Source of the DNA: a virus
Taxonomy: Duplodnaviria > Caudoviricetes
IMG/VR virus record: IMGVR_UViG_3300037467_000533
Location: 1-27,149 of that record
Length of the DNA stretch: 27,149 bases
Direction: 5' to 3' (one strand)
Part shown: positions 5,620 to 18,842 of the stretch, piece by piece
How the letters are laid out: each line of letters opens with the position of its first letter
Position numbering within the stretch: position 1 is the stretch's first letter
Made by a program: the position numbers and the translations under genes
Notes under the pieces: generated by a model
What the model was told of the DNA's origin: nothing
The model's input: only the letters and a program-made list of their open reading frames with translations
Database searches by the model: none

Positions 5620-6798
5620 ATGTCTGGTATCACCGGACTGGGCACGTCTTTCAACCTGCCCAACTACCACGGTGAGCTCATCGGGCTCACCCCGACCGAG
5701 ACCCCGCTTCTGTCCCTCAGTGGCGGCGTCGGCGGCGGCAAGCAGACCGACTCGCCCGTGTTCGAGTGGCAGACGGAGGACCTTCGGGACCCGGCCGTCC
5801 GCGCCCGTCTCGAGGGCGCTGACGCCCCGACCGCCGAGTCGCGCGTCCGCGCCAACGTCGAGAACGTCGCGCAGATCTTCCAGGAGGCCGTGAACACGTC
5901 CTACACGAAGCTCGCCTCGACCGGCCAGTTCGCCAACGGCAACGGTGGCGTCGGCGTCGGCAACCCCGTCCAGAACGAGCACAGCCACCAGGTCATGCTC
6001 GCCCTCAAGACGGTCGCCCGCGACGTCAACTACTCCATGTGGCACGGCGTGAAGAACAAGCCGGCCGACAACACGACCGCGCGTCAGATGGGCGGCCTTC
6101 TCTCGGTCGTCACGTCGAACCGCACCGGCACGGAGTCGACCGGTTCGGCCGCGACCGACACCATCACGGTCACGCACTCGCTGAGTGTCGGCGACAAGGT
6201 CGTGTTCTCCGACGTGGGCGCCTCGACGGCGATCACCAAGGGCGTCACGTACTACGTGCAGTCGGTCTCCACGACCGTCTCGTTCAAGGTCGCTGCGACC
6301 TCGGGCGGCTCGGCCATCACGATCGGCACCGCCACGGTCAAGTTCTACGCGGCCAAGACGACCCTCACGGTCGACGGCCTCGAGACCCTGATGCAGTCGG
6401 TCTTCGACAACGGCGGCATCACCGACCAGGCTGCGGCCACCCTGTTCTGCTCGAGCCGGCAGAAGCGCGCCCTCACGGCCGCCTACGCCGCCGAGTACGG
6501 CAAGGCTGACCCGTTCAACATGACCCGCACCGTCGCCGGCCTGAACCTCCAGACCATCGAGACGAACTTCGGTTCGCTCAACGTGGTCGTGGACCGTGCG
6601 CTGCCGGCCGACACCCTCGCCGTCGTCTCCCTCGAGCAGGTTGACCCGGTGTTCCTGTCGATCCCCGGCAAGGGTGTCCTGTTCGAGGAGGAGCTCGCCA
6701 AGACGGGCGCTTCCGAGAAGTCGCAGATCTATGGCGAGATTGGCCTCAAGTACGGCAACCAGGCTGCGCACGGCATCATGCGCGGCCTCGCCATCTGA
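5620..6798 (+). CDS. Major capsid protein (SU10/DUF5309-like) with an internal beta-rich insertion
   Basis: Motifs TETPLLS, FEWQTEDL, ENVAQIFQE.V..SYT, ARQMGGL, IETNFG.LNVV.DR, LAKTG.SEKSQIYGEIGLKY; AGGAGG RBS. Confidence 0.9.
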   Translation: MSGITGLGTSFNLPNYHGELIGLTPTETPLLSLSGGVGGGKQTDSPVFEWQTEDLRDPAVRARLEGADAPTAESRVRANVENVAQIFQEAVNTSYTKLASTGQFANGNGGVGVGNPVQNEHSHQVMLALKTVARDVNYSMWHGVKNKPADNTTARQMGGLLSVVTSNRTGTESTGSAATDTITVTHSLSVGDKVVFSDVGASTAITKGVTYYVQSVSTTVSFKVAATSGGSAITIGTATVKFYAAKTTLTVDGLETLMQSVFDNGGITDQAAATLFCSSRQKRALTAAYAAEYGKADPFNMTRTVAGLNLQTIETNFGSLNVVVDRALPADTLAVVSLEQVDPVFLSIPGKGVLFEEELAKTGASEKSQIYGEIGLKYGNQAAHGIMRGLAI

Positions 6799-6843: not shown

Positions 6844-7452
6844 GTGAGCACACCACTCGCAACCCCCGCCGAACTCGGGGTGTACCTGACGGGCACCCCG
6901 CTCGCAGACGACGACCCGCGCGGTCTGCTGGTGCTGCAACTCGCGCACGACCTGTGTGAGACGGTCGTGTCACCGGTTCCGGCGCTCGGCAAGGGTGTCG
7001 AGTTGGCGGTCGCGTCGCGCGCGTACAACAACGTCACGTCGGCGCATCAGATGAGTCTCGGCTCGGCTGCGGTGTCGTTCGGGGCGCAGAACTCGAGCAT
7101 GGGCGTTGGCGGATTGTACCTGTCGAAGTCTGAGAAGGCGACGCTGCGTCGGCTGGCTGGCCGGTCGGGTGCGTTCTCTGTGAACATGCTTCTCGGTCGC
7201 GCTCCGGCGCTGGTCGCGTCAGTGTCGGCGGGCTTCCCGTCTGGCGCTGGTGACGATGACGTGGTCGTGTTCACCGGCTACGGCTTCACGTCGACGTCTG
7301 CGGTCACGGTCGGCGGCACGGCAGCGGAGTTCGAGGTCGTCGACGACACGATGCTGTCGGTGACGCTTCCCACCGGTTCGGCCGGCGACGTCGCCGTGGT
7401 CGTCACGAACGACGAGGGCGCGTCTCAGCCCTACACGTACACGCGCGCATGA
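6844..7452 (+). CDS. Head-to-tail adaptor fused to a C-terminal IPT/TIG (Ig-like) domain
   Basis: N-terminal PLATPAEL..YL...RAYNN...GGLYLSKSEKATLRR is the actinophage adaptor pattern; the last ~83 aa show the TIG pattern (V.FTG.GF....V.VGG....F.VVDDT.L.V.LP....G.V.VVVTN..G.S). Confidence 0.82.
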   Translation: MSTPLATPAELGVYLTGTPLADDDPRGLLVLQLAHDLCETVVSPVPALGKGVELAVASRAYNNVTSAHQMSLGSAAVSFGAQNSSMGVGGLYLSKSEKATLRRLAGRSGAFSVNMLLGRAPALVASVSAGFPSGAGDDDVVVFTGYGFTSTSAVTVGGTAAEFEVVDDTMLSVTLPTGSAGDVAVVVTNDEGASQPYTYTRA

Positions 7453-8514: not shown

Positions 8515-8555
8515 CCAGCCGTCACTCAACACCGCCCCTTTGCGGGCACCAACCC

Positions 8556-8584
8556 AGACCCTGCCGCGGTGGGGTCTTTGTCAT
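8556..8584 (+). terminator. Hairpin upstream of the major tail gene
   Basis: agaccctgcc-gc-ggtggggtct followed by ttgtcat; includes G-U pairs. Confidence 0.45.
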
Positions 8585-8602
8585 GCCCCAGGAGGCACGC
8601 AC

Positions 8603-9316
8603 ATGAGCAACACCACTGCTCTTGCCCGCAAGTTCAGGGTCGATGTCACGACCGACCTGACTCTCGCGGGTGGCTGGACCGAGCTGAAGGGCATCTACGC
8701 CCTCAAGCCGACCGTCGACCCGAACACCGTCGACACGAGCGCGTACGACACGGACGGGTGGGACTCGTTCGAGATCACGAGCAACGCGTGGGGCCTAACG
8801 GCTTCCGTGTGGCGCCGCACGTCCACGGGCGTCTACGACCCAGGCCAGGAGATCGCCCGTGCATGCGTCGGCCAGTTCGGCGACAGCGCCCGCGTCGGTG
8901 TCCGCTGGTACGACAAGGATGGTGGCGCCGAGGCTTACAAGGGTGTCGCGATCGTCAAGTGGGAGCGCGCCAACGACGGCGTCAAGGATGCTGACGCGGC
9001 CACGCTGACCCTCATGGGTGACGGCGTCCGCACCACGATCACCAACCCTGGCGTCGCTGCTGCTGCTCCAGTTGTCCTGTCGGCCACGCCGTCGGGTGCC
9101 GCTGCGGGCGAGCTCGTCATCATCTCCGGTTCGGGTTTCGCGACCGTCACGGGCGCTACTGGCGTCAAGTTCGGTGGCGTCAACGCTGCGGACTACTCGA
9201 TCGTCTCGGACTCGCGGATCGTGGCTTCGCTGCCTGCCGGTTCGGCTGGTTCGGCTGTCGTCCTCGTGACGAACACGGTTGGCGCGTCGAACGCGCTGGC
9301 TTACACGCGGGCCTGA
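8603..9316 (+). CDS. Major tail (tube) protein with a C-terminal IPT/TIG domain
   Basis: ALARKFRVDV...D.SAYDTDGW...DPGQE..R...VRWYD..G..EAY.G.A.V.W tube motif; Ig-like tail from about 9065; AGGAGG RBS before ATG 8603. Confidence 0.9.
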   Translation: MSNTTALARKFRVDVTTDLTLAGGWTELKGIYALKPTVDPNTVDTSAYDTDGWDSFEITSNAWGLTASVWRRTSTGVYDPGQEIARACVGQFGDSARVGVRWYDKDGGAEAYKGVAIVKWERANDGVKDADAATLTLMGDGVRTTITNPGVAAAAPVVLSATPSGAAAGELVIISGSGFATVTGATGVKFGGVNAADYSIVSDSRIVASLPAGSAGSAVVLVTNTVGASNALAYTRA

Positions 9317-10051: not shown

Positions 10052-12901
10052 GTGGCGGGCGAAACGAACATCGGCGGCATCGTCGGATTCCTCCGGCTTG
10101 AGAACGACCAGTTTGTTCGCGCCATCGACCACGCGATCTACAAGACCGAGATCCTCGACGGCAAGCGCGTCGACATCCGCGTCGACGCTGACACGACCGG
10201 CGCCGCTGCTGGGCTAGAGCGCACCGCTGTTCAGGCTGACAAGCTCGACGGTTCGGTGAAGCGTGTCAATGCGTCGTCGCGTTCTGCGCGTGGCGGTGTT
10301 GGTGCGCTCGCGACGGCTGTCATTGCCCTTGGTCCCGCGATGGTGCCGCTGGCTGCTGGCGCTGTCGGTCTCGGCGCCGCGTTCGGTGGCATGGGTGCTG
10401 CTGGTGTCGCCGCGCTTGTCGGCGTGATGCAGGAGATGAAGGCCGGCACTGTCGTCGGCGAGTCCTACCGTGCCACGCTCGGGTCCGCGAAGGCTGACCT
10501 TGAGGATCTGGCGTCGACCGCCGCTGGCAACGTCCTCGGCTCGTTCCAAGACGCCGTGACGGACCTGAACGAGCAGATGCCGGCGCTCAACGCGCAGGTC
10601 GGCGACCTCGCGACCATCTCCGGTCGCGCGGGCGCTGCTCTTGTCGGTGGGGTCGTGACGGGCTTCCAGACGCTCAACCCGCTCATGCTCGACGCGTCGG
10701 TGTACGTCCTTGACCTGATGCAGCGGTTCCAGGCTGCTGCTGGCGGGTCTGGGATGACCGAGTTCGTCGACTACGTGCGGTCGGTCTTCCCGACGGTCAT
10801 GTCTGACATTGAGGCCATCGTCGGCGCCGTCGCTCACCTTGTCGCTGCGCTCGCACCGCTGGGTGGTGGCACCCTGACGGCGCTGCGGACGTTTGCTGAC
10901 CTAATCTCGGCCATCCCGACGGATGTGCTGTCTGTCATTGCGACGCTCGCGACGAGTGTGTTCATCGGTTTCAGGTCGTGGCAGGCTCTTTCGGCTCCGA
11001 TCAATGGGCTGATCGGAATGCTCGGTGGCGTCGAGTCGATGTCCACGCGAGCCGCGACGGCTGTGCGCGGGCTTCAGATGGCTGCCGGTCTGATTGGTGT
11101 CGCAATCGCTGGCCTGTCGCTGCTGTTTGCGGCGAACGCCGAGGACCAGCGCAAGGCTGAGGACGCCACGAACCGTTACGCAGACGCCCTCCGCGCATCG
11201 AATGGAGTTATCGACGAGTCGATCCGGCAGAGCACCGCTAAGGCGCTCGCCGATGAGGGTGTGCTCGAGGCTGGCCGGAAACTCGGTGTTAATCTCGCGG
11301 ACCTGACCGATGCGGCGCTCGGCAATGCTGACGCGCAGGCCCGCGTGAACGCTGTGATCGGCGCCCAGAAGGACGTGCTCACTGAGGCGAACTCCGGTGC
11401 TAAGACTGGTGTCGCACGGAAGACTGAACTCGGCGAGGCCGCCGACAAGGTCACCAAGGCCATCGGGTTCGAGAACAACGCCCTCCATGACGGCATCCAG
11501 AAGAATAGGGATCTGGCTGCTGCGACGGCATCGACGGCTGGCGCGACGTCCAACGCTGAGATCGCGGCGCGCAACCTCGCGAGCACCTACGGCGTGAGCG
11601 CGACGACCTATGCGGCGGTTGCGACCAGCCAGGAGAAGCTCGCCGACAAGGCTGCTCAGGCAACGCTCAAGATGCAGCTCGAGAACGACGCTGCGGGCCT
11701 TCTGAAGCAGCAACTTGACCTCTTGGCAGGCGAGTCGCTGTCGGCGGCTCAGGCGCAGAACTCGTTCGACCGTGCGCAACTGTCGCTTGCCGGGCCCATT
11801 AAGGCGGCCAAGGAGGCGCTCGCTGCCGCTGAGAAGCGTGCCGGCGAGGTTGCGGCCGACTCTGGCAAGAAGTCTGCTGGTGGCGCCGCTGCGGTGCGGC
11901 GGGCGCAACTGTCGCTCGCTCAGGCTCAGGATCATCTCCGGCTCGTCCAGTCGAACGGCAAGGCGACCGCTTCGCAGTTGGCGTCGGCTCAGGATCGGGT
12001 CGAGCGGGCCACGCTCAACCTCTCCATCGCCCAGGGCAAGGCGGCTACGACGACCGGCGCCGCCACGCAGGCTCAGAAGGATGCTGCGAACGCTGCCGCC
12101 GCTCAGGCTCGGGCGAACCTTGAGGCCATGTACGCGCTCGAGGGCTCGTCTGAGGCTGCGGTGACGAACCGCGCGAACCTCCTCGGGCTGGTGCAGGCCG
12201 CCGAGCAGTCGGCCGAGGCTGAGGGGAACCGCACTGGTTCCAGCGAGAAGGGCCGGCTGAAGCTCATCGAGCTCCGCGCGGAGATCCTGAAGAACGCCGA
12301 GGCGAACGGCTTCAGCCGAAAGAAGGTTGAGGAGTTCATCGACTCGGTTCTGAAGATCCCCAAGTCGGTTCCGCCGACGAAGGTTGACCTTGACACGGCT
12401 GCCGCGCTCAAGAAGAAGGCGGCGCTTCAGGCTGCCATCAACGCCATCACGGGCAAGACGGTCACGGTCACACTCCAGCAGGTTTACACGACGCTCGGCC
12501 AGCCCGCCGCGCTGAGGGTGCACAACGAGCAGCGGCTGTCCGAGAACGGCGTCAACACTGAGTTTGCGCGGGGCGGCATCATCTCGGCTGGGGTGCGCAA
12601 GATGGCGCAGGGTGACATCTCGCGCCCGTCGATGATTATGCGGTCGACACGTCCGATCCTGTGGAACGAGGCGCCGGGTGGGGAGGCGTTCATCAGCCTG
12701 GCACCGCAGCAGCGGGCACGGTCGCTCGCGATCCACTCTGAGGTTGGGAAGATTCTCGGCGCAGGCGGGGGTGCTGGTGGCGGCATGACGTACGAGCAGA
12801 TGCGCACTCTCGCAGGGCTGCTCGGCCGTGAGTTCCGCAGATTGCCGGCGCCGAGCGTTGACATGGACGGCTTGTCGTCGCGGCTCGTGGGAGGTATGTG
12901 A
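10052..12901 (+). CDS. Tape measure protein (949 aa)
   Basis: Longest ORF; Ala/Gly-rich helical with hydrophobic segments and coiled coils; MAGETNIG.IVG.L.L start and C-terminal FARGG...WNEA.GGEAFI motif. Confidence 0.95.
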   Translation: MAGETNIGGIVGFLRLENDQFVRAIDHAIYKTEILDGKRVDIRVDADTTGAAAGLERTAVQADKLDGSVKRVNASSRSARGGVGALATAVIALGPAMVPLAAGAVGLGAAFGGMGAAGVAALVGVMQEMKAGTVVGESYRATLGSAKADLEDLASTAAGNVLGSFQDAVTDLNEQMPALNAQVGDLATISGRAGAALVGGVVTGFQTLNPLMLDASVYVLDLMQRFQAAAGGSGMTEFVDYVRSVFPTVMSDIEAIVGAVAHLVAALAPLGGGTLTALRTFADLISAIPTDVLSVIATLATSVFIGFRSWQALSAPINGLIGMLGGVESMSTRAATAVRGLQMAAGLIGVAIAGLSLLFAANAEDQRKAEDATNRYADALRASNGVIDESIRQSTAKALADEGVLEAGRKLGVNLADLTDAALGNADAQARVNAVIGAQKDVLTEANSGAKTGVARKTELGEAADKVTKAIGFENNALHDGIQKNRDLAAATASTAGATSNAEIAARNLASTYGVSATTYAAVATSQEKLADKAAQATLKMQLENDAAGLLKQQLDLLAGESLSAAQAQNSFDRAQLSLAGPIKAAKEALAAAEKRAGEVAADSGKKSAGGAAAVRRAQLSLAQAQDHLRLVQSNGKATASQLASAQDRVERATLNLSIAQGKAATTTGAATQAQKDAANAAAAQARANLEAMYALEGSSEAAVTNRANLLGLVQAAEQSAEAEGNRTGSSEKGRLKLIELRAEILKNAEANGFSRKKVEEFIDSVLKIPKSVPPTKVDLDTAAALKKKAALQAAINAITGKTVTVTLQQVYTTLGQPAALRVHNEQRLSENGVNTEFARGGIISAGVRKMAQGDISRPSMIMRSTRPILWNEAPGGEAFISLAPQQRARSLAIHSEVGKILGAGGGAGGGMTYEQMRTLAGLLGREFRRLPAPSVDMDGLSSRLVGGM

Positions 12902-13641
12902 TGAGCACGTCTGCGATCACTCTCGACTCGTTCCCGCTCGTGGGGTCTACTCCTGGCGGTGGCCGGGCACGGGTGACGGGCTTCGATGGTTGGCTGTCGT
13001 CGTCGCAGCGGCGCAATCGTGGCGACCGCACTGGCCGTCATGGCGGCTTCGGGTCGACGGGTCTGCGCACGGCGAAGGAGATGCGCCTGCGCGGCACGGT
13101 CACGTATGCGTCTGCTGCGACGTGTGCTGCTGAGCGTCGCACATTGCTGGCGCTCGGCGGGTCGGGACTGGCGGTCGAGCTCGAGGTGACGGACGCACTG
13201 GACACCCTCACGCTGAGCGTAGGTGTGGATGACGCGGACGTGAAGCCGCTGAACGACCGCACGCTGTCGTTCGAATTCACTGTCACGGCCGATGACCCGT
13301 TCCCAAAGGCTGACGCCGCGAACACCGCCGTCGCCATTGCGGCTTCGTCAACTGAAACTGTCGACAACGACGGTACCGCGGCGGCTGACCTGCTCGTCAC
13401 TGTCACGTCACCCGGAACGGTCATCCTCACCGCGGGTGGCCTGACGCTCACGACGACGTCACTCGCTGCGGGCACGGTCATCGACACGGGCGCGTGCACG
13501 GTCACCTCGAGCGGCGGCGCGGACTTGTTCTCGTCGGTGGTCGCTGGTTCGCAGTGGCCGGCGCTTCCCGCTGGCGGCGGTTCGGTGCAGCAGGCGGGCA
13601 CGGCCGGCTTGTCCGTCGTCTCTTACGACACTTACGCCTAG
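12901..13641 (+). CDS. Distal tail protein (Dit-like)
   Basis: First gene after tape measure; V.GFDGW......R....HGGF, L.G, F..TA.DPF, V.N.GT, IDT, W..L..GG pattern; start 12898 or 12901. Confidence 0.78.
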   Translation: MSTSAITLDSFPLVGSTPGGGRARVTGFDGWLSSSQRRNRGDRTGRHGGFGSTGLRTAKEMRLRGTVTYASAATCAAERRTLLALGGSGLAVELEVTDALDTLTLSVGVDDADVKPLNDRTLSFEFTVTADDPFPKADAANTAVAIAASSTETVDNDGTAAADLLVTVTSPGTVILTAGGLTLTTTSLAAGTVIDTGACTVTSSGGADLFSSVVAGSQWPALPAGGGSVQQAGTAGLSVVSYDTYA

Positions 13642-13649
13642 GAGGGCGC

Positions 13650-14015
13650 ATGGCTACGTTCCCCACTTCTTCGTTTGGTGGCGATCTGCTCGACCAGCTC
13701 TCGGGGCACACGACGGCGTTGGCGATCTACACGGTGCCTCCGACGAAGGCTGGCGGCGGCACTGAGGTGCAGCGTGTGACGTTCTCGTTGGGTGCGTCGG
13801 TGGATGGCGGCGTAGGTCGCACGTCACAGCGCACGGGCACGAACGTCCTGTTCCTGGCGGTGCCTGAGGACTCTGCGGACCTGCTGGGCATCGCGATCGT
13901 GGACGACGACACGGACGAGATCCTCGTGGTGGATGACGCCTGGACGCCTGCCAACACGTTCTCGGCCGGCGCGAACATGCTGGTCGATGCGCTGACCGTG
14001 TTCACCGAGAACTGA
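13650..14015 (+). CDS. Small minor tail protein
   Basis: AGGAGG RBS, ATG 13650; LAIYT.PP...GGGTEV...GIAIVD pattern of ~120-aa phage tail/fibre-associated proteins. Confidence 0.7.
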   Translation: MATFPTSSFGGDLLDQLSGHTTALAIYTVPPTKAGGGTEVQRVTFSLGASVDGGVGRTSQRTGTNVLFLAVPEDSADLLGIAIVDDDTDEILVVDDAWTPANTFSAGANMLVDALTVFTEN

Positions 14016-14025
14016 CGGAGGCGAC

Positions 14026-15384
14026 ATGGGCGACTTTGACACCGTCTGGGAAGACCTTCCCTCCACCGATACTCCGATCTCTGCGGCGTACCTGACTGCT
14101 GTCGATGAGGCTCTGCGGGTCGCGACGGTCGCGTTCGTGACGACGCCCGAGGAGCATGGCGCGGTCGGCGACGGCACGACGGACGACACGGCCGCGATCA
14201 ACACCGCGATCGACGCCTGCGTGACCGCGGGCGGCGGCACGGTGCGGTTCGGGGCGAAGACGTACCTGTGCAACGGGTCGCTGGACACCAGTCGCGGCGG
14301 CAACGCCGTGATCCCGCTGCCGACCGGTCCGCAGCCTGTCCGCCTCGTCGGGGTCGCAGCTCCGAACCAGTGCGACCCGCGGACCGACGCCGGCCGCTAC
14401 ACGATCATCAAGACGACCAAGACCGGCCTGACCCGGTCGGGCACGGACGGCGTGCCGTCGCTCATCGGCGGCCCCACCGACAGCACGTGGGCCGAGACGA
14501 TGACCACCATCGAGAACCTCTGCCTGTGGCTGCCGAAGAACCCGACCATCGCCGGCATCGACTTGTGGCACGTCCGCCGATACCTGCTCGACGGCGTGTC
14601 GGTCATCGCGCTCAACACGGGCGACACCGACTACACCGACCCGACCAGCGTCTACGCGTTCGGCATCCGCACGGCCGAGCCGCTGAACTACAATGCCTGC
14701 CTCATCCGCAACGTCCAAGTCCACGGCATGTACGCCGCGATCGTCGGCTCCGTCGAGTCGCAGGTCATCGCCTACTTCGTCGCGAAGTGGTGCAAGGTCG
14801 GCTGGGGAGTCGCCCCCGGTGGGCACGGCGCGTCTGTGCTCAAGATGGACCTCTCGTGGTGCCCGTATTCGATCTCGGGCTGGTCGGAGACGGCCGGCGC
14901 CACCAGCGTCCAGACGGGTGCCCTGGGCGAGACCACGGCGCAGATCTCGGTGAATTACCTCGCCATCGAGGACTGGGGCGGCGCGTCGAAGTGGTACGAC
15001 CCCGTGTACGCGCTCAACGACTCCACGAACCGCGTCAAGGGCGTCGTCTTCTACGACTACTACGACATGGTCGACGGCATCGGCTCGACGTTCACGAAGA
15101 ACGGCGGCACCGGCGTCACGGCGATCTCGCTGCTGTCGCCATCGTTCGGCGGCGCCGGGGCGTCGCTGACCGTGCAGGACGAGAACGGCAACGTCGCCAC
15201 TGGCGTCACGCAGATCGACTTCCAGGGCGCAGGCGTCACCGCCGCGGCAGGCTCCGGCGAGGTCGTCGTCACCATCGCAGGCGGAACCGCCACCCGTGCC
15301 GAGCTGCTCATGCAGGACGGCGTCACCGGACCACCCGTGCCCCTCGAGAACGAGGCGCGCGACGACTGGCTCTACCAGGACTGA
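14026..15384 (+). CDS. Tailspike with pectate-lyase-like right-handed beta-helix (candidate depolymerase)
   Basis: TPEEHGAVGDGTTDDTAAINTAIDA...GGGTVRF...TY is the Pectate_lyase_3-type cap; N-terminal W.DLPST.TPISA..L attachment-like motif. Confidence 0.82.
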   Translation: MGDFDTVWEDLPSTDTPISAAYLTAVDEALRVATVAFVTTPEEHGAVGDGTTDDTAAINTAIDACVTAGGGTVRFGAKTYLCNGSLDTSRGGNAVIPLPTGPQPVRLVGVAAPNQCDPRTDAGRYTIIKTTKTGLTRSGTDGVPSLIGGPTDSTWAETMTTIENLCLWLPKNPTIAGIDLWHVRRYLLDGVSVIALNTGDTDYTDPTSVYAFGIRTAEPLNYNACLIRNVQVHGMYAAIVGSVESQVIAYFVAKWCKVGWGVAPGGHGASVLKMDLSWCPYSISGWSETAGATSVQTGALGETTAQISVNYLAIEDWGGASKWYDPVYALNDSTNRVKGVVFYDYYDMVDGIGSTFTKNGGTGVTAISLLSPSFGGAGASLTVQDENGNVATGVTQIDFQGAGVTAAAGSGEVVVTIAGGTATRAELLMQDGVTGPPVPLENEARDDWLYQD

Positions 15385-15393
15385 GAGGCACCC

Positions 15394-15981
15394 ATGGCCA
15401 AGGCATCAGACAACGTCTTCCCCTACCTTCACGTCGCCCCGGCAGCGGCGCCCGCATCTCCTTCGGCTGGGTCGCAGCGGCTCTTCCTCGACAGCGCTGA
15501 CGGCAACAAGCTGAAGCGCAAGGACTCGTCTGGGACGGTGACCACGATCGAAGGTGGCTCTGCCTCAGGCGTGCTCGCTTACACGTCCTACAATCCCGGC
15601 ACGCTTTCGTCGTACACCACCACGTCGACCACCGTGAGCGACGTCGACGCGACGAACCTTGCCGTGACGTTCACGGCCCCAACCAGCGGCAAGGTCCTGG
15701 TCACGCTGAGCGGCGTCGGCGGTGCCAGTGGCACGGCCAACGACAACTCCCTGTGGGCGCTGCGCGAGTCGACGACGACCATCGCCGGCCCGTCGAATGC
15801 CCACGCCGGCAACGGTAGCGCCAACTCGAACCTGACCATGTCGTTCGTCATCACGGGCCTCACTGGCGGCTCGTCCTACACGTACAAGTGGGCATGGAAG
15901 TCGAGCGTCGGAACCAACACCGCGCGCCTGTACGCCGGGACTGGAATCCAGGCAGTCATGACGGTGACCGCCCTGCCGTGA
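15394..15981 (+). CDS. Minor tail / fibre protein with a C-terminal beta-sandwich
   Basis: Ser/Thr/Gly-rich; L.VTFTAPTSGKVLV...ITGLT.G.SYTYK motif frequent in actinophage fibre tips. Confidence 0.72.
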   Translation: MAKASDNVFPYLHVAPAAAPASPSAGSQRLFLDSADGNKLKRKDSSGTVTTIEGGSASGVLAYTSYNPGTLSSYTTTSTTVSDVDATNLAVTFTAPTSGKVLVTLSGVGGASGTANDNSLWALRESTTTIAGPSNAHAGNGSANSNLTMSFVITGLTGGSSYTYKWAWKSSVGTNTARLYAGTGIQAVMTVTALP

Positions 15982-16026: not shown

Positions 16027-18207
16027 GTGGCATATCCCGGTGACCACCCAGGATCATTCCCCGGCGCCGAAGCCGACACCACCGAGACCGTCGACCTTGG
16101 CATCCGCCTCGGCATGGAGGTCTCGGATCAGGTCGTCACGTTCGACACCGAGACTGTCGATGGCCTCGGCATCAGGCTTGGGCTTGAGGTTTCCGACGTC
16201 ATCATTCACGCAGTCGAGACCGTCACGCTCGGCATCGGGCTCGGACTGCGCACCTACACCCCGAAGGCGTGGGGCGAGGACGTCCGCACCGGCCGGCCCG
16301 CACCGCGCATCGACATCGCAGACCGCGACGGCACGCTCGTCGCGACCCTGCCGAAGTCGACGCTCAAGCCGCTCACGACCGGCGTCAACGTCCTCGACAG
16401 GTTCGGGTTCACCGTCGACCGGAACGACGCGCGGGCGCGGCTGATCCAGCCCGTCGCCCACGAGGCTTACCTGTACCGCGGGAACGTGCTGATGGCGAAG
16501 GGTCCGATCGGCCCCGGCAACTCTGGCGACGCGTTCACGTCCTACGACTGCGCCGACCCGCGCTGGCACTTCGCCGACGGGCGGCGCCGCATCGGCCGCA
16601 TCCCGAAGCGTCAACTGCTGCTTAACCCTGGCTTTACTGAGGGCGCTAACGGGCTCGCCCACTGGGTCGGCGGCTGGGACGCCGGCTCGGCGCTCGCGTC
16701 CGCACCTGAGGCTGAGGTCGTCGACGAGTCCTATGCGCGCTCCGGCAAGGCGCTCGAGCTCGGCGGCGTCGACAAGGTCATGCGCGGCACGGAAACCCTT
16801 GAGACCGCCGCCGTCTTCTATGGCAATCGGCCGTATGCGTGGGAGCCGCTCGCGAATGGGTTCCTGCCCGGTGGTGAGGCTGCCATCACCGCCATTGCGA
16901 ACATGATGACCGGGCCGGCTCCCGTCGTTCACATCACCGGCCACACCGCCGACGCGGACGCTGGGGACGGGCAGGCGCTCTCGGAGCGTCGCGCGCTCGC
17001 AGCCAAAGCTGTCGTGCTTGCGCGCTGGCCGCTCGCCGTCGTCACCACCGAAGGCAAGGGAGAGACGGAGCCTGCCGTCAAGGGCCACACTGAAGAGGCG
17101 TACCGGAAGAACCGCCGCGTCGTGTTCGAGTTCGACACGAACATCTCCGCGGTCGGCCACCGCCAGTTTTACTACCAGTGGGTGACGGTCACACAGCCGA
17201 CGTCGGCGAAAGTCCCTCTCCCGCTGACGTTCGCTGCGGACATGCGGATCATCGAATGGCTCGGCGCGCCCGGCGACGGGTGGGCCATCCTCGTGCGCGC
17301 CAAGCGCGGCTCGACCGTCATCGACGAGGCGAACGCGACGATGGACGAGTTCACGCCGCGGGTCCGGTGGGCGCACTACGAGGCGACCGTCGAGATCCCC
17401 GCGGATGGCATCGCCACCGCCGTGCAGGTCCGGCTGTACCCGCCAGCCGGTTCGTCCCGGTGGGCGAACGCCGGCTTGTGGCCGCAGGACCAGCTCGGCT
17501 TCTTCGACGTCGACCAGGCACTCATCGTCAAGGGCATCGTCGAGCATGTGCAGGACGAGTCCCTCGGGCACGGCGACCTCGGCATCGGCACCCGCACACC
17601 ACTCACGGGCGTCCCGCGAACGCGCGAGTACCCGTACCACGAGCGGATGCCGGCCGACACTGCGATGGAGTGGTTCACGTCCATCGACAAGGGCATGGAC
17701 ATCGACTACGACCAGGACCGGAATCAGGTCGTGACGCACTACCCGCGTCAGGGCACGTCGGCGGATCTGGCGCTGGTGCACGGCGGGCGCCGGTCGAACG
17801 TCGTGGCGTACAAGCCGCTGTCGACGTCCGCGCTCGCGCTCGCGTCGAACGTGATCGTGCAGGCTGACGGTTCGGGCGCATCCCGGCCAGAAGGCTACGC
17901 GCGTGACTCGGCCGCGCTCGGAGGGGCGCTGGTTGAGGCTGTCATCTCCGCCGAGGAGGAGACGCCACTGTCGGAGCTCGACGAGGGCGCCGCGTCCGCA
18001 CTGGCCGCGTCGCTGCACGCCCGTCCAGGCTGGGAAGTCACAGTGTCGCCGGATTGGACGACGCGCGTGCTCGACCAGACCGGCAAGGGCGACACGCTGC
18101 GGCTGGTCCTGCCAGACGAGGACGTGGACGGCCCGCACCGGCTCGTCTCGTCCGAGTGGAACCCAGAGACGGACATCGTCACCCTGACGCTCATCGAGGA
18201 GGCGTAA
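16027..18207 (+). CDS. Baseplate hub / Tal-like minor tail protein containing CBM-like and OmpA-like domains
   Basis: Hub-like N-part (LYRGNVLMAKGPI) and C-part (R.R.Y..., G.DID, YPRQG, SNV...ASNV...G.G, GD.LRL..D); inner LLNPGF CBM-like module; inner OmpA motifs ITGHTAD, LSERRA, GKGETEP, KNRRVVF. Confidence 0.8.
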   Translation: MAYPGDHPGSFPGAEADTTETVDLGIRLGMEVSDQVVTFDTETVDGLGIRLGLEVSDVIIHAVETVTLGIGLGLRTYTPKAWGEDVRTGRPAPRIDIADRDGTLVATLPKSTLKPLTTGVNVLDRFGFTVDRNDARARLIQPVAHEAYLYRGNVLMAKGPIGPGNSGDAFTSYDCADPRWHFADGRRRIGRIPKRQLLLNPGFTEGANGLAHWVGGWDAGSALASAPEAEVVDESYARSGKALELGGVDKVMRGTETLETAAVFYGNRPYAWEPLANGFLPGGEAAITAIANMMTGPAPVVHITGHTADADAGDGQALSERRALAAKAVVLARWPLAVVTTEGKGETEPAVKGHTEEAYRKNRRVVFEFDTNISAVGHRQFYYQWVTVTQPTSAKVPLPLTFAADMRIIEWLGAPGDGWAILVRAKRGSTVIDEANATMDEFTPRVRWAHYEATVEIPADGIATAVQVRLYPPAGSSRWANAGLWPQDQLGFFDVDQALIVKGIVEHVQDESLGHGDLGIGTRTPLTGVPRTREYPYHERMPADTAMEWFTSIDKGMDIDYDQDRNQVVTHYPRQGTSADLALVHGGRRSNVVAYKPLSTSALALASNVIVQADGSGASRPEGYARDSAALGGALVEAVISAEEETPLSELDEGAASALAASLHARPGWEVTVSPDWTTRVLDQTGKGDTLRLVLPDEDVDGPHRLVSSEWNPETDIVTLTLIEEA

Positions 18208-18842
18208 TGCGCGCACCTGACGGCAGGCCCTACGTCCGCGACGGCATCGGTGAGCAGCTCCGCGGCGGACGCAAGACGGTTGACGTGCTGTCGCGGCGCC
18301 TCGATCGGCAGCCAAAGATCCCCGACCCTGTGGCATCTGGTGGCATCGTCGGCATGGCTGAAGTTGTGTCAGCAGGCGGAGTCCAAATGCTGGCAGGACA
18401 AGCGCTGCTACGGAACAGCATCACCTACCAGACGCCGGACGACGCCTTCGCCGGGTCTCCGGGCGCCAGCTCCCAAGCGATCTCGTCATGGTGCACCATC
18501 GACGCCAGCGAGCCCTGGAAGATCGCGCTCATACCGGGCTGGTACAACCTCGCGGTCACACTCCAGGTCAACTGGTCCGTTAAGGCAGAGGCGCCGACCT
18601 CGCTGAGCCTCTACATGCAGGGCGGGTGGGATGTAGCCCACAACGACTGGAGCATCTTCGCCCTCGCCGACACGAGCGACACCTTGACGCCGCAGTGGGG
18701 CATCGCTCAGGTCGCCAGTCACGGCCCCACGTTCATCAACGACGGCGACGCCGTGTGGCTCGAGTGCCGCCCGTATGGCGGGAACCCGACTGGGGACAGC
18801 AATGCCGGCGCTGTGGTGTGGAACATCACGAAACTCGGATAG
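18207..18842 (+). CDS. Minor tail protein (possible receptor-binding, C1q/TNF-like beta C-terminus)
   Basis: TAATG overlap with the hub stop; short coiled N-terminus followed by a beta-rich domain with PGWY.L.V...W and GD.V.L motifs. Confidence 0.65.
   Translation: MRAPDGRPYVRDGIGEQLRGGRKTVDVLSRRLDRQPKIPDPVASGGIVGMAEVVSAGGVQMLAGQALLRNSITYQTPDDAFAGSPGASSQAISSWCTIDASEPWKIALIPGWYNLAVTLQVNWSVKAEAPTSLSLYMQGGWDVAHNDWSIFALADTSDTLTPQWGIAQVASHGPTFINDGDAVWLECRPYGGNPTGDSNAGAVVWNITKLG

Follow-up and report, generated by a model that had tools for sequence, protein, structure and literature searches.

The window, which is the whole stretch of DNA analysed, is a virus record of 27,149 bases. It is 58% complete (CheckV) and has a GC content of about 66%. 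Its gene set, identified with Pfam and PHROG, includes a terminase, portal, capsid, tail tube, distal tail protein (Dit), endolysin, holin, and tyrosine integrase. Because of this gene content, the virus is judged to be a probable temperate siphophage. Its closest cultured relatives are actinobacterial phages. For instance, the capsid protein is 46-47% identical to those of Mycobacterium, Bifidobacterium, and Propionibacterium phages, the endolysin is 33-38% identical to those of Streptomyces phages (67 of 73 records), and the integrase is 40% identical to those of Propionibacterium phages. The host is likely to be an actinobacterium.

A probable tape measure protein of 949 residues is encoded at 10052..12901 (+). 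This assignment is based on position and size. The protein has no Pfam or PHROG match, and is 51% identical over 737 residues to the long gene preceding Dit in a related locus (L009). The Dit gene follows at 12898..13641 (+; phrog_33, E 8e-7). Three genes lie between Dit and the hub (13494-15981), and extra genes are found there in related loci too. One of the three, at 14026..15384 (+), encodes a tailspike-like protein that is a separate candidate receptor-binding protein (PF12708, 29.9 bits); tail spike PHROGs match its residues 35-87 only. The hub gene thus lies downstream of the tape measure and Dit within the tail module, with other tail genes intervening between Dit and hub. By tblastn, Dit is upstream of the hub in five of six related loci, and the sixth (L013) has a tape-measure-sized ORF followed by a Dit-sized ORF.

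The whole tail-tip hub (Tal-like) gene occupies 16027..18207 (+) and encodes 726 residues. It has a GTG start with a ribosome-binding-like sequence, GGAAGG, upstream. All the motifs quoted in an earlier note on this DNA are present, in order, in this single frame, with LLLNPGF starting at 16615 (aa 197). The protein begins with an extension of three loose repeats (aa 1-87; 16027..16287, +) that is modelled with low confidence (pLDDT below 50 for aa 1-75 in the full-length model). A first beta-rich sub-domain follows (aa 88-190; 16288..16596, +), as seen in the full-length model and by Foldseek. Next comes the first part of a CBM-type jelly-roll (aa 193-250; 16603..16776, +), then an OmpA-like domain (aa 254-371; 16786..17139, +), then the second part of the jelly-roll (aa 377-487; 17155..17487, +). 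Both jelly-roll parts were delimited by model and structure alignment, and the OmpA-like domain by Pfam, profile, model, and structure alignment. The remaining three hub sub-domains (aa 490-726; 17494..18207, +) were placed with phrog_1885, the model, and Foldseek, and the C terminus carries no spike extension.

The ORF is predicted to be a gp27-like tail-tip hub, in line with the baseplate hub of the earlier note. Residues 492-725 match the minor tail protein family phrog_1885 (E 8e-10). The full-length model (pLDDT 72) matches gp27-like hubs in Foldseek, with the four-sub-domain fold: 3cdd (E 6e-10), 7zhj_b, a T5 tail-tip chain (E 7e-9), and 1wru (E 7e-8). TM-scores to these hubs are low because of the insert. 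Position in the tail module agrees with this identity. Both fold and position are shared with gp27-like hubs and Tal N-terminal domains such as those of MuSo2 (3cdd), Mu gp44 (1wru), T5 (7zhj_b), and Listeria gp18 (3gs9). Unlike these, the window protein has a nested insert of about 300 residues after the first sub-domain, variable N-terminal modules, and no C-terminal extension. In the hub family (P0004-P0044), the region corresponding to 16027-16287 of the window holds variable modules, namely F5/8, LamG, DUF4082, and TIG, ahead of the hub. Tal extensions are, in contrast, usually C-terminal (PMC9437275).

The OmpA-like domain can be recognized in several ways. Pfam OmpA (PF00691) matches aa 284-363 with E 6.9e-6 and 26.8 bits, just below the gathering cut-off of 27.2, and reaches 30.3 bits in P0003, which is 83% identical to the window protein. 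With phmmer, Pal structures are matched (E 7e-5), and a 15-row profile matches solved OmpA-like domains down to E 5e-12. An AlphaFold2 model of aa 190-490, built on 70 rows, has a pLDDT of 94.5 and a pTM of 0.81, and was compared with 48,161 chains. TagL (5m38) aligns to model residues 65-182 with Z 15.6 and rmsd 2.0 (109 of 113 residues aligned). The model shows the four-stranded sheet and three helices of the OmpA-like fold in the order beta-alpha-beta-alpha-beta-alpha-beta, so the domain named in the earlier note is recovered by profile and by predicted fold.

The surrounding module also shows its expected fold, a CBM beta-sandwich jelly-roll. The CBM16 structure 2zew aligns over model range 3-298 (Z 14.2, rmsd 2.6, 139 aligned), and 2xom, another CBM jelly-roll, scores Z 13.9. 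The same beta-sandwich is found in CBM16, CBM61, CBM4, and CBM22 jelly-rolls (2zew, 2xom, 4bj0, 4xup) and in a module of CBA120 TSP4 (5w6h), at Z 11.8-14.2; the window's differs in being split by a domain insertion. The earlier note had likened the module to CBM4/9. The jelly-roll part of that claim stands. Pfam CBM_4_9 has no match in the window protein and matches the relative P0020 under the cut-off (E 0.002); feature scores of 0.81 provide a lead only. Relatives that lack the insert match CBM22 by profile (E 2e-4).

In the aa 190-490 model, OmpA-like chains align to residues about 60-184, and CBM chains align across 3-299. The nesting is therefore hub, then CBM, then OmpA-like domain, as the earlier note had described, and is established at the level of predicted structure. 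Long beta strands connect both ends of the OmpA-like domain to the jelly-roll, and the model shows no linker of low confidence between the two.

Insertion of wall-targeting modules into Tals has precedents. Streptococcus thermophilus phages SW13 and TP-778L have such modules inside the gp27-like domain, as well as CBMs on the Tal (PMC9437275). Theirs, however, are two lysin domains with long linkers between sub-domains 3 and 4 (PMC9437275), whereas the window has a non-catalytic binding fold inside a CBM that, as mapped from the model, would follow sub-domain 1. The words "OmpA" and "LysM" have 0 occurrences in PMC9437275. In the open-access main texts searched, no description of a tail hub with an OmpA-like domain was found, in line with the earlier note, which knew of no such domain in a virion tail tip. 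Two candidate precedents were set aside: in a huge-phage preprint, OmpA appears to refer to membrane barrels, and a Leptospira paper appears to concern Loa22. The points added here are the nesting within a CBM, the division of inserts into motif classes, LysM as an alternative passenger, the differing histories of insert and hub, and a carrier in a deposited strain.

The fusion was also sought in cultured phages. With P0001, P0039, and P0081 as tblastn queries, no hub and OmpA fusion was found in 50,697 GenBank phage records. P0001 had no match in these records. P0039 matched 21, each with the hub part only (as in Streptomyces phages Attoomi and mu1/6) or the OmpA part only, and P0081 matched 2, hub only.

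The canonical DAP-binding motif of OmpA-like domains is TD(x7)NxxLSxxRA, in which Asp2, Asn10, and Arg17 are critical (PMC5104382). Wall binding by TagL requires the Asn, Leu, Ser, Arg, and Ala of the motif (PMC8253398). In the window, the motif is altered to G305-H-T307-A308-D309...G313-x-G315-x-x-L318-S319-x-x-R322-A323 (16939..16995, +), and an N362-R363-R364 motif lies at 17110..17118 (+), both located by alignment. A308 takes the place of the Asp and G315 that of the Asn, so only one of the three key residues, the Arg (R322), remains; L318, S319, A323, and NRR are kept as well. Compared with OmpA, Pal, and MotB (PF00691; TagL 5m38, A. baumannii OmpA 3td3 and 3td5, OprF 5u1h), the window shares the fold, LSxxRA, and NRR but lacks the Asp and Asn of TD(x7)NxxLSxxRA, and it sits in a phage tail gene instead of an envelope, flagellar, or secretion protein. 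The best PDB match of the 15-row profile (E 5e-12) is domain 3 of Treponema pallidum Tp0624 (5jir), which shares TAD in place of TD as well as the Arg. The two differ at the Asn position, where the window has Gly and the Tp0624 type has Glu or Gln.

The 64 aligned inserts fall into motif classes: 32 are Ala/Gly/Arg like the window, 15 are Asp/Asn/Arg, and 17 are other. Relatives of the Asp/Asn/Arg class reach 73 bits on Pfam OmpA. R364 is present in 64/64 inserts and R322 in 59/64, with Arg replaced by Gln in the other 5, and the strong conservation of the pocket with its kept Arg agrees with the earlier note.

The same note had taken the Asp to be shifted by one residue (GHTAD), which the alignment does not bear out, given that A308 fills the Asp column. 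One reading would still have D309 replace the canonical Asp, so that the domain binds unsubstituted meso-DAP stems like OmpA and Pal. It can appeal to the kept R322, L318, S319, and A323, to the presence of D309 in the window, and to the loop, which has one residue fewer than in the canonical motif and could thereby bring D309 into a different position. Within the Ala/Gly class, however, position 309 is D in 21 inserts, N in 9, and Y in 2 (n=32). It therefore provides no conserved substitute for Asp, being N or Y in 11/32. Tp0624, the one characterised TAD-type domain, has an Asp at the same place and showed no DAP binding in soaks or ITC (PMC5104382). The one host whose peptidoglycan type was taken from a paper has LL-DAP A3gamma (PMC6113628), and the window suits this reading less well than do the 15 Asp/Asn/Arg relatives. 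With both Asp and Asn replaced, standard meso-DAP binding by the window domain is therefore unlikely, the canonical clamp is not supported as first worded, and a rescue of such binding by D309 seems highly improbable.

A second reading treats the insert as a structural or vestigial passenger that was captured once and has been retained because it serves folding or the geometry of the tip; its pocket would be dead in this clade. The loss of two of three key residues fits it, as do the further decay in other branches (Arg to Gln in 5/64) and the absence of the insert from P0045, P0055, P0066, P0069, P0071, and P0074. Yet A308 and G315 are fixed together in 32/32 inserts of the Ala/Gly class, most of which share only 37-55% identity with the window insert. 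Two copies in one protein (P0018) and an apparent exchange between lineages, both described below, also speak against it. Among the 32 Ala/Gly inserts, conservation reaches 95% or more in 18 of 117 OmpA columns, compared with 8 of 169 CBM columns, which argues for a pocket under selection. The conserved columns include T307, A308, G315, L318, S319, R322, G345, R363, and R364. A dead passenger appears quite unlikely.

A first homologue search returned 15 proteins at 28-98% identity, and 15/15 keep the insert. In a profile search of 1.84 billion representatives, 331 proteins then had E values no higher than 1e-30. The insert profile matched 61 of the best 150 of these 331 hub relatives, a ranking that favours carriers because the search profile contained the insert, and 71 of all 160 proteins collected; it missed decayed copies in P0060 and P0142. 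Most of the remaining best-150 relatives consist of hub and CBM without the insert.

A hub-only tree was built from 141 rows with FastTree and rooted at the midpoint, leaving out partial proteins and three close relatives. A branch with support 96 sets all carriers, and with them the six rows named above that lack the insert, apart from the remaining rows. Six such rows amid carriers suggest losses, and the insert would be dispensable in some lineages. The two trees do not agree on a single origin of all inserts: carriers fall together in the hub tree, whereas at least two changes on starred branches are required by the domain tree.

The history of the insert apparently differs from that of the hub. 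Relative to its hub sisters P0004-P0006, the window protein is 38-40% identical in the insert and 49-67% in the C-terminal hub part. Relative to the distant hubs P0009, P0011, P0017, and P0026, the values are 52-55% and 27-29%. The insert data reject the hub-sister clade (p-AU 0.0066, 28 rows), although this clade was chosen from the hub tree when one domain tree had already been seen, and uneven rates could contribute. Judged from these sequence comparisons, exchange between lineages appears to have taken place. Third-position GC is lower in the insert (0.80) than in the hub parts and second CBM part (0.89-0.95), but the first CBM part has 0.83; the difference is a weak hint.

Other domains occupy the same CBM loop in relatives. 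P0136 has a LysM there (aa 260-301; 30 bits, cut-off 20.9), P0135 a LysM-like domain (aa 269-330; 18.9 bits, under the cut-off), P0150 a DUF3472 (aa 597-757), and P0128 a 115-residue insert of no named family (aa 200-314). These were placed by profile alignment to insert-free hubs, and their edges are imprecise; reading the flanks gives the same loop. P0018 carries two OmpA-like inserts (aa 565-681 and 742-871) in two different loops of one CBM. LysM and LysM-like domains in the same loop, together with the discordant insert history, make this loop look like a swappable slot, and it is likely to be one.

The variety of passengers bears on a third reading, in which the ligand of the insert is a surface protein of the host or an anionic polymer of its wall, of teichoic or teichuronic type, perhaps bound at a composite site shared with the CBM. 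With the acidic residue gone and R322, R363, and R364 retained, the pocket would be basic. The insert is joined to the CBM without a low-confidence linker, and the DUF3472 and the 115-residue insert show that some passengers are not among the known binders of peptidoglycan. The conserved residues are nevertheless those of the peptidoglycan pocket, the full motif is kept in 15/64 inserts, and LysM takes its place in P0136. This reading is considered unlikely.

In a domain tree of 108 columns, the Ala/Gly class forms a group of 36 rows (support 97), apart from both Treponema TAD and cellular domains. Descent from spirochaete TAD domains is unsupported, since three Treponema TAD domains are placed away from the class in this tree, which is weak and has long branches. 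Their separate placement suggests that the TAD change is probably convergent in the phage class and Treponema. Cellular OmpA domains have Asp/Asn in 30 of 31 cases from the host family, the other being MotB, and in 74 of 77 from metagenomes. For those examined, the idea that cellular actinobacterial OmpA domains already have the Ala/Gly pocket was thus rejected. Of 328 candidates in a search of shorter proteins bearing the insert, 2 were returned, and both have the canonical motif.

All carriers for which a host label exists belong to the Ala/Gly class. In Intrasporangium flavum MUSC 78, the carrier is a prophage within a contig of 325 kb. Others are Terrabacter sp. C0L_2 (P0016) and an Intrasporangium sp. 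MAG protein (P0035), which is not counted as independent of the genomes numbered with G. Carrier G155 is a 249-kb contig with host-type genes beside phage genes, and carrier G178 consists of short contigs. The monoderm host supposed in the earlier note agrees with this actinobacterial range of relatives. Terrabacter and Streptomyces share the glycine-bridged LL-DAP wall of A3gamma type, in which the bridge acylates the DAP amine. The peptidoglycan of I. flavum is also A3gamma LL-DAP (PMC6113628), and that of I. calvum has a triglycine bridge (PMC3035309).

The hub is present in 3 of 301 host-family genomes (3 of 401 in a larger set). FemAB-type ligases occur in 3/3 of these and in 129/301 overall (p=0.08, or 0.18 without the centre genome), so any association of hub with FemAB is weak. 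Of the hub-bearing genomes, G001 has a MotB as its sole Pfam OmpA match, and G155 and G178 have none. Against a link with LL-DAP, 4 of 27 cellular OmpA loci with the canonical motif are in FemAB-positive genomes. P0013, which is of the Ala/Gly class and is a partial protein without the C-terminal hub part, is also labelled Solirubrobacteraceae, on a 3.4 kb MAG contig. Solirubrobacteraceae have meso-DAP walls.

FemAB and cellular OmpA-like hits in 298 genomes give an odds ratio of 0.38 (p=1e-4), which is given little weight because related genomes are not independent and MotB is among the hits. Of the genomes G001-G301 whose best FemAB hit is in two pieces (E about 1e-29 to 1e-42), 3 of 61 have an OmpA-like hit; this scarcity may reflect wall chemotype or only kinship.

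Hosts were also sought for the Asp/Asn class. None were found in 401 genomes of the order, 401 of the phylum, or a cluster look-up. A metagenome scan was dominated by cellular OmpA genes, and a viral scan returned one hub, which was insert-free.

We judge it somewhat better than an even chance that the OmpA-like domain is a secondary wall grip, with its pocket altered for a stem with a substituted diamino acid, such as glycine-bridged LL-DAP, as opposed to free meso-DAP. The hub trimer would display three OmpA-like domains at the tail tip, a copy number taken from known hubs. First contact would be made by other adhesins, namely the tailspike-like protein and the CBM, and the insert would then hold the tip on exposed peptidoglycan ahead of DNA ejection. 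In the pocket, contact with the carboxylate would be maintained by R322. With the amine of the diamino acid acylated, no Asp would be needed, and G315 would make room for the bridge.

Evidence for this wall grip comes from the fold and nesting, the position in the tail module, the conservation of the pocket, the 15/64 inserts with Asp/Asn/Arg, and the LysM in the same loop. The discordant insert history, the Ala/Gly-class prophage in I. flavum with its A3gamma LL-DAP, and the FemAB-type ligases in 3/3 hub-bearing genomes also fit, and SiiA binds peptidoglycan with L-x3-R alone of the motif (10.1101/641415). On the other side, Tp0624, with the same Asp to Ala change, did not bind DAP (PMC5104382), and the Asn lost in the window is among those residues needed by TagL (PMC8253398). 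The weak FemAB link, the 4/27 FemAB-positive canonical loci, the Solirubrobacteraceae label of P0013, and the six insert-free rows count against it as well.

A broader version, possible but rather doubtful, is that the loop is a slot for peptidoglycan readers whose pocket reads stem chemotype, with Asp/Asn for meso-DAP and Ala/Gly for glycine-bridged LL-DAP. The motif classes and host data give indirect support to such chemotype specificity, which the earlier note had raised as a possibility. If it holds, peptidoglycan cross-link chemistry would help to determine phage receptors in actinobacteria, with a domain captured from bacteria as its reader, and nature would have supplied a probe for A3gamma walls in the Ala/Gly class.

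To our knowledge, little is known of the receptors and tip mechanics of actinobacterial phages. A hub family with a captured wall-anchor domain in canonical and altered forms, and with LysM as an alternative, would show direct recognition of peptidoglycan by a tail tip. It would also provide a natural series for how OmpA-like pockets adapt to walls without meso-DAP, a question left by Tp0624. The idea can be tested now, given the small size of the domain and the availability of I. flavum MUSC 78 (DSM 29621), a deposited strain that harbours one of the carriers as a prophage.

Three further features of the window may be mentioned. In the major capsid protein (5620-6798, 392 residues), aa 4-390 span a Pfam profile of 292 positions, and the 12 listed cultured relatives match in two pieces at 78-84% coverage; it appears to carry an internal insertion of roughly 60-100 residues. 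An IPT/TIG (Ig-like) domain ends both the head-tail adaptor-like protein (6844-7452) and the major tail protein (8540-9316). Finally, a 760-residue open frame runs antiparallel to the hub gene on the minus strand (16054-18336) and is probably a shadow of high-GC codon use.
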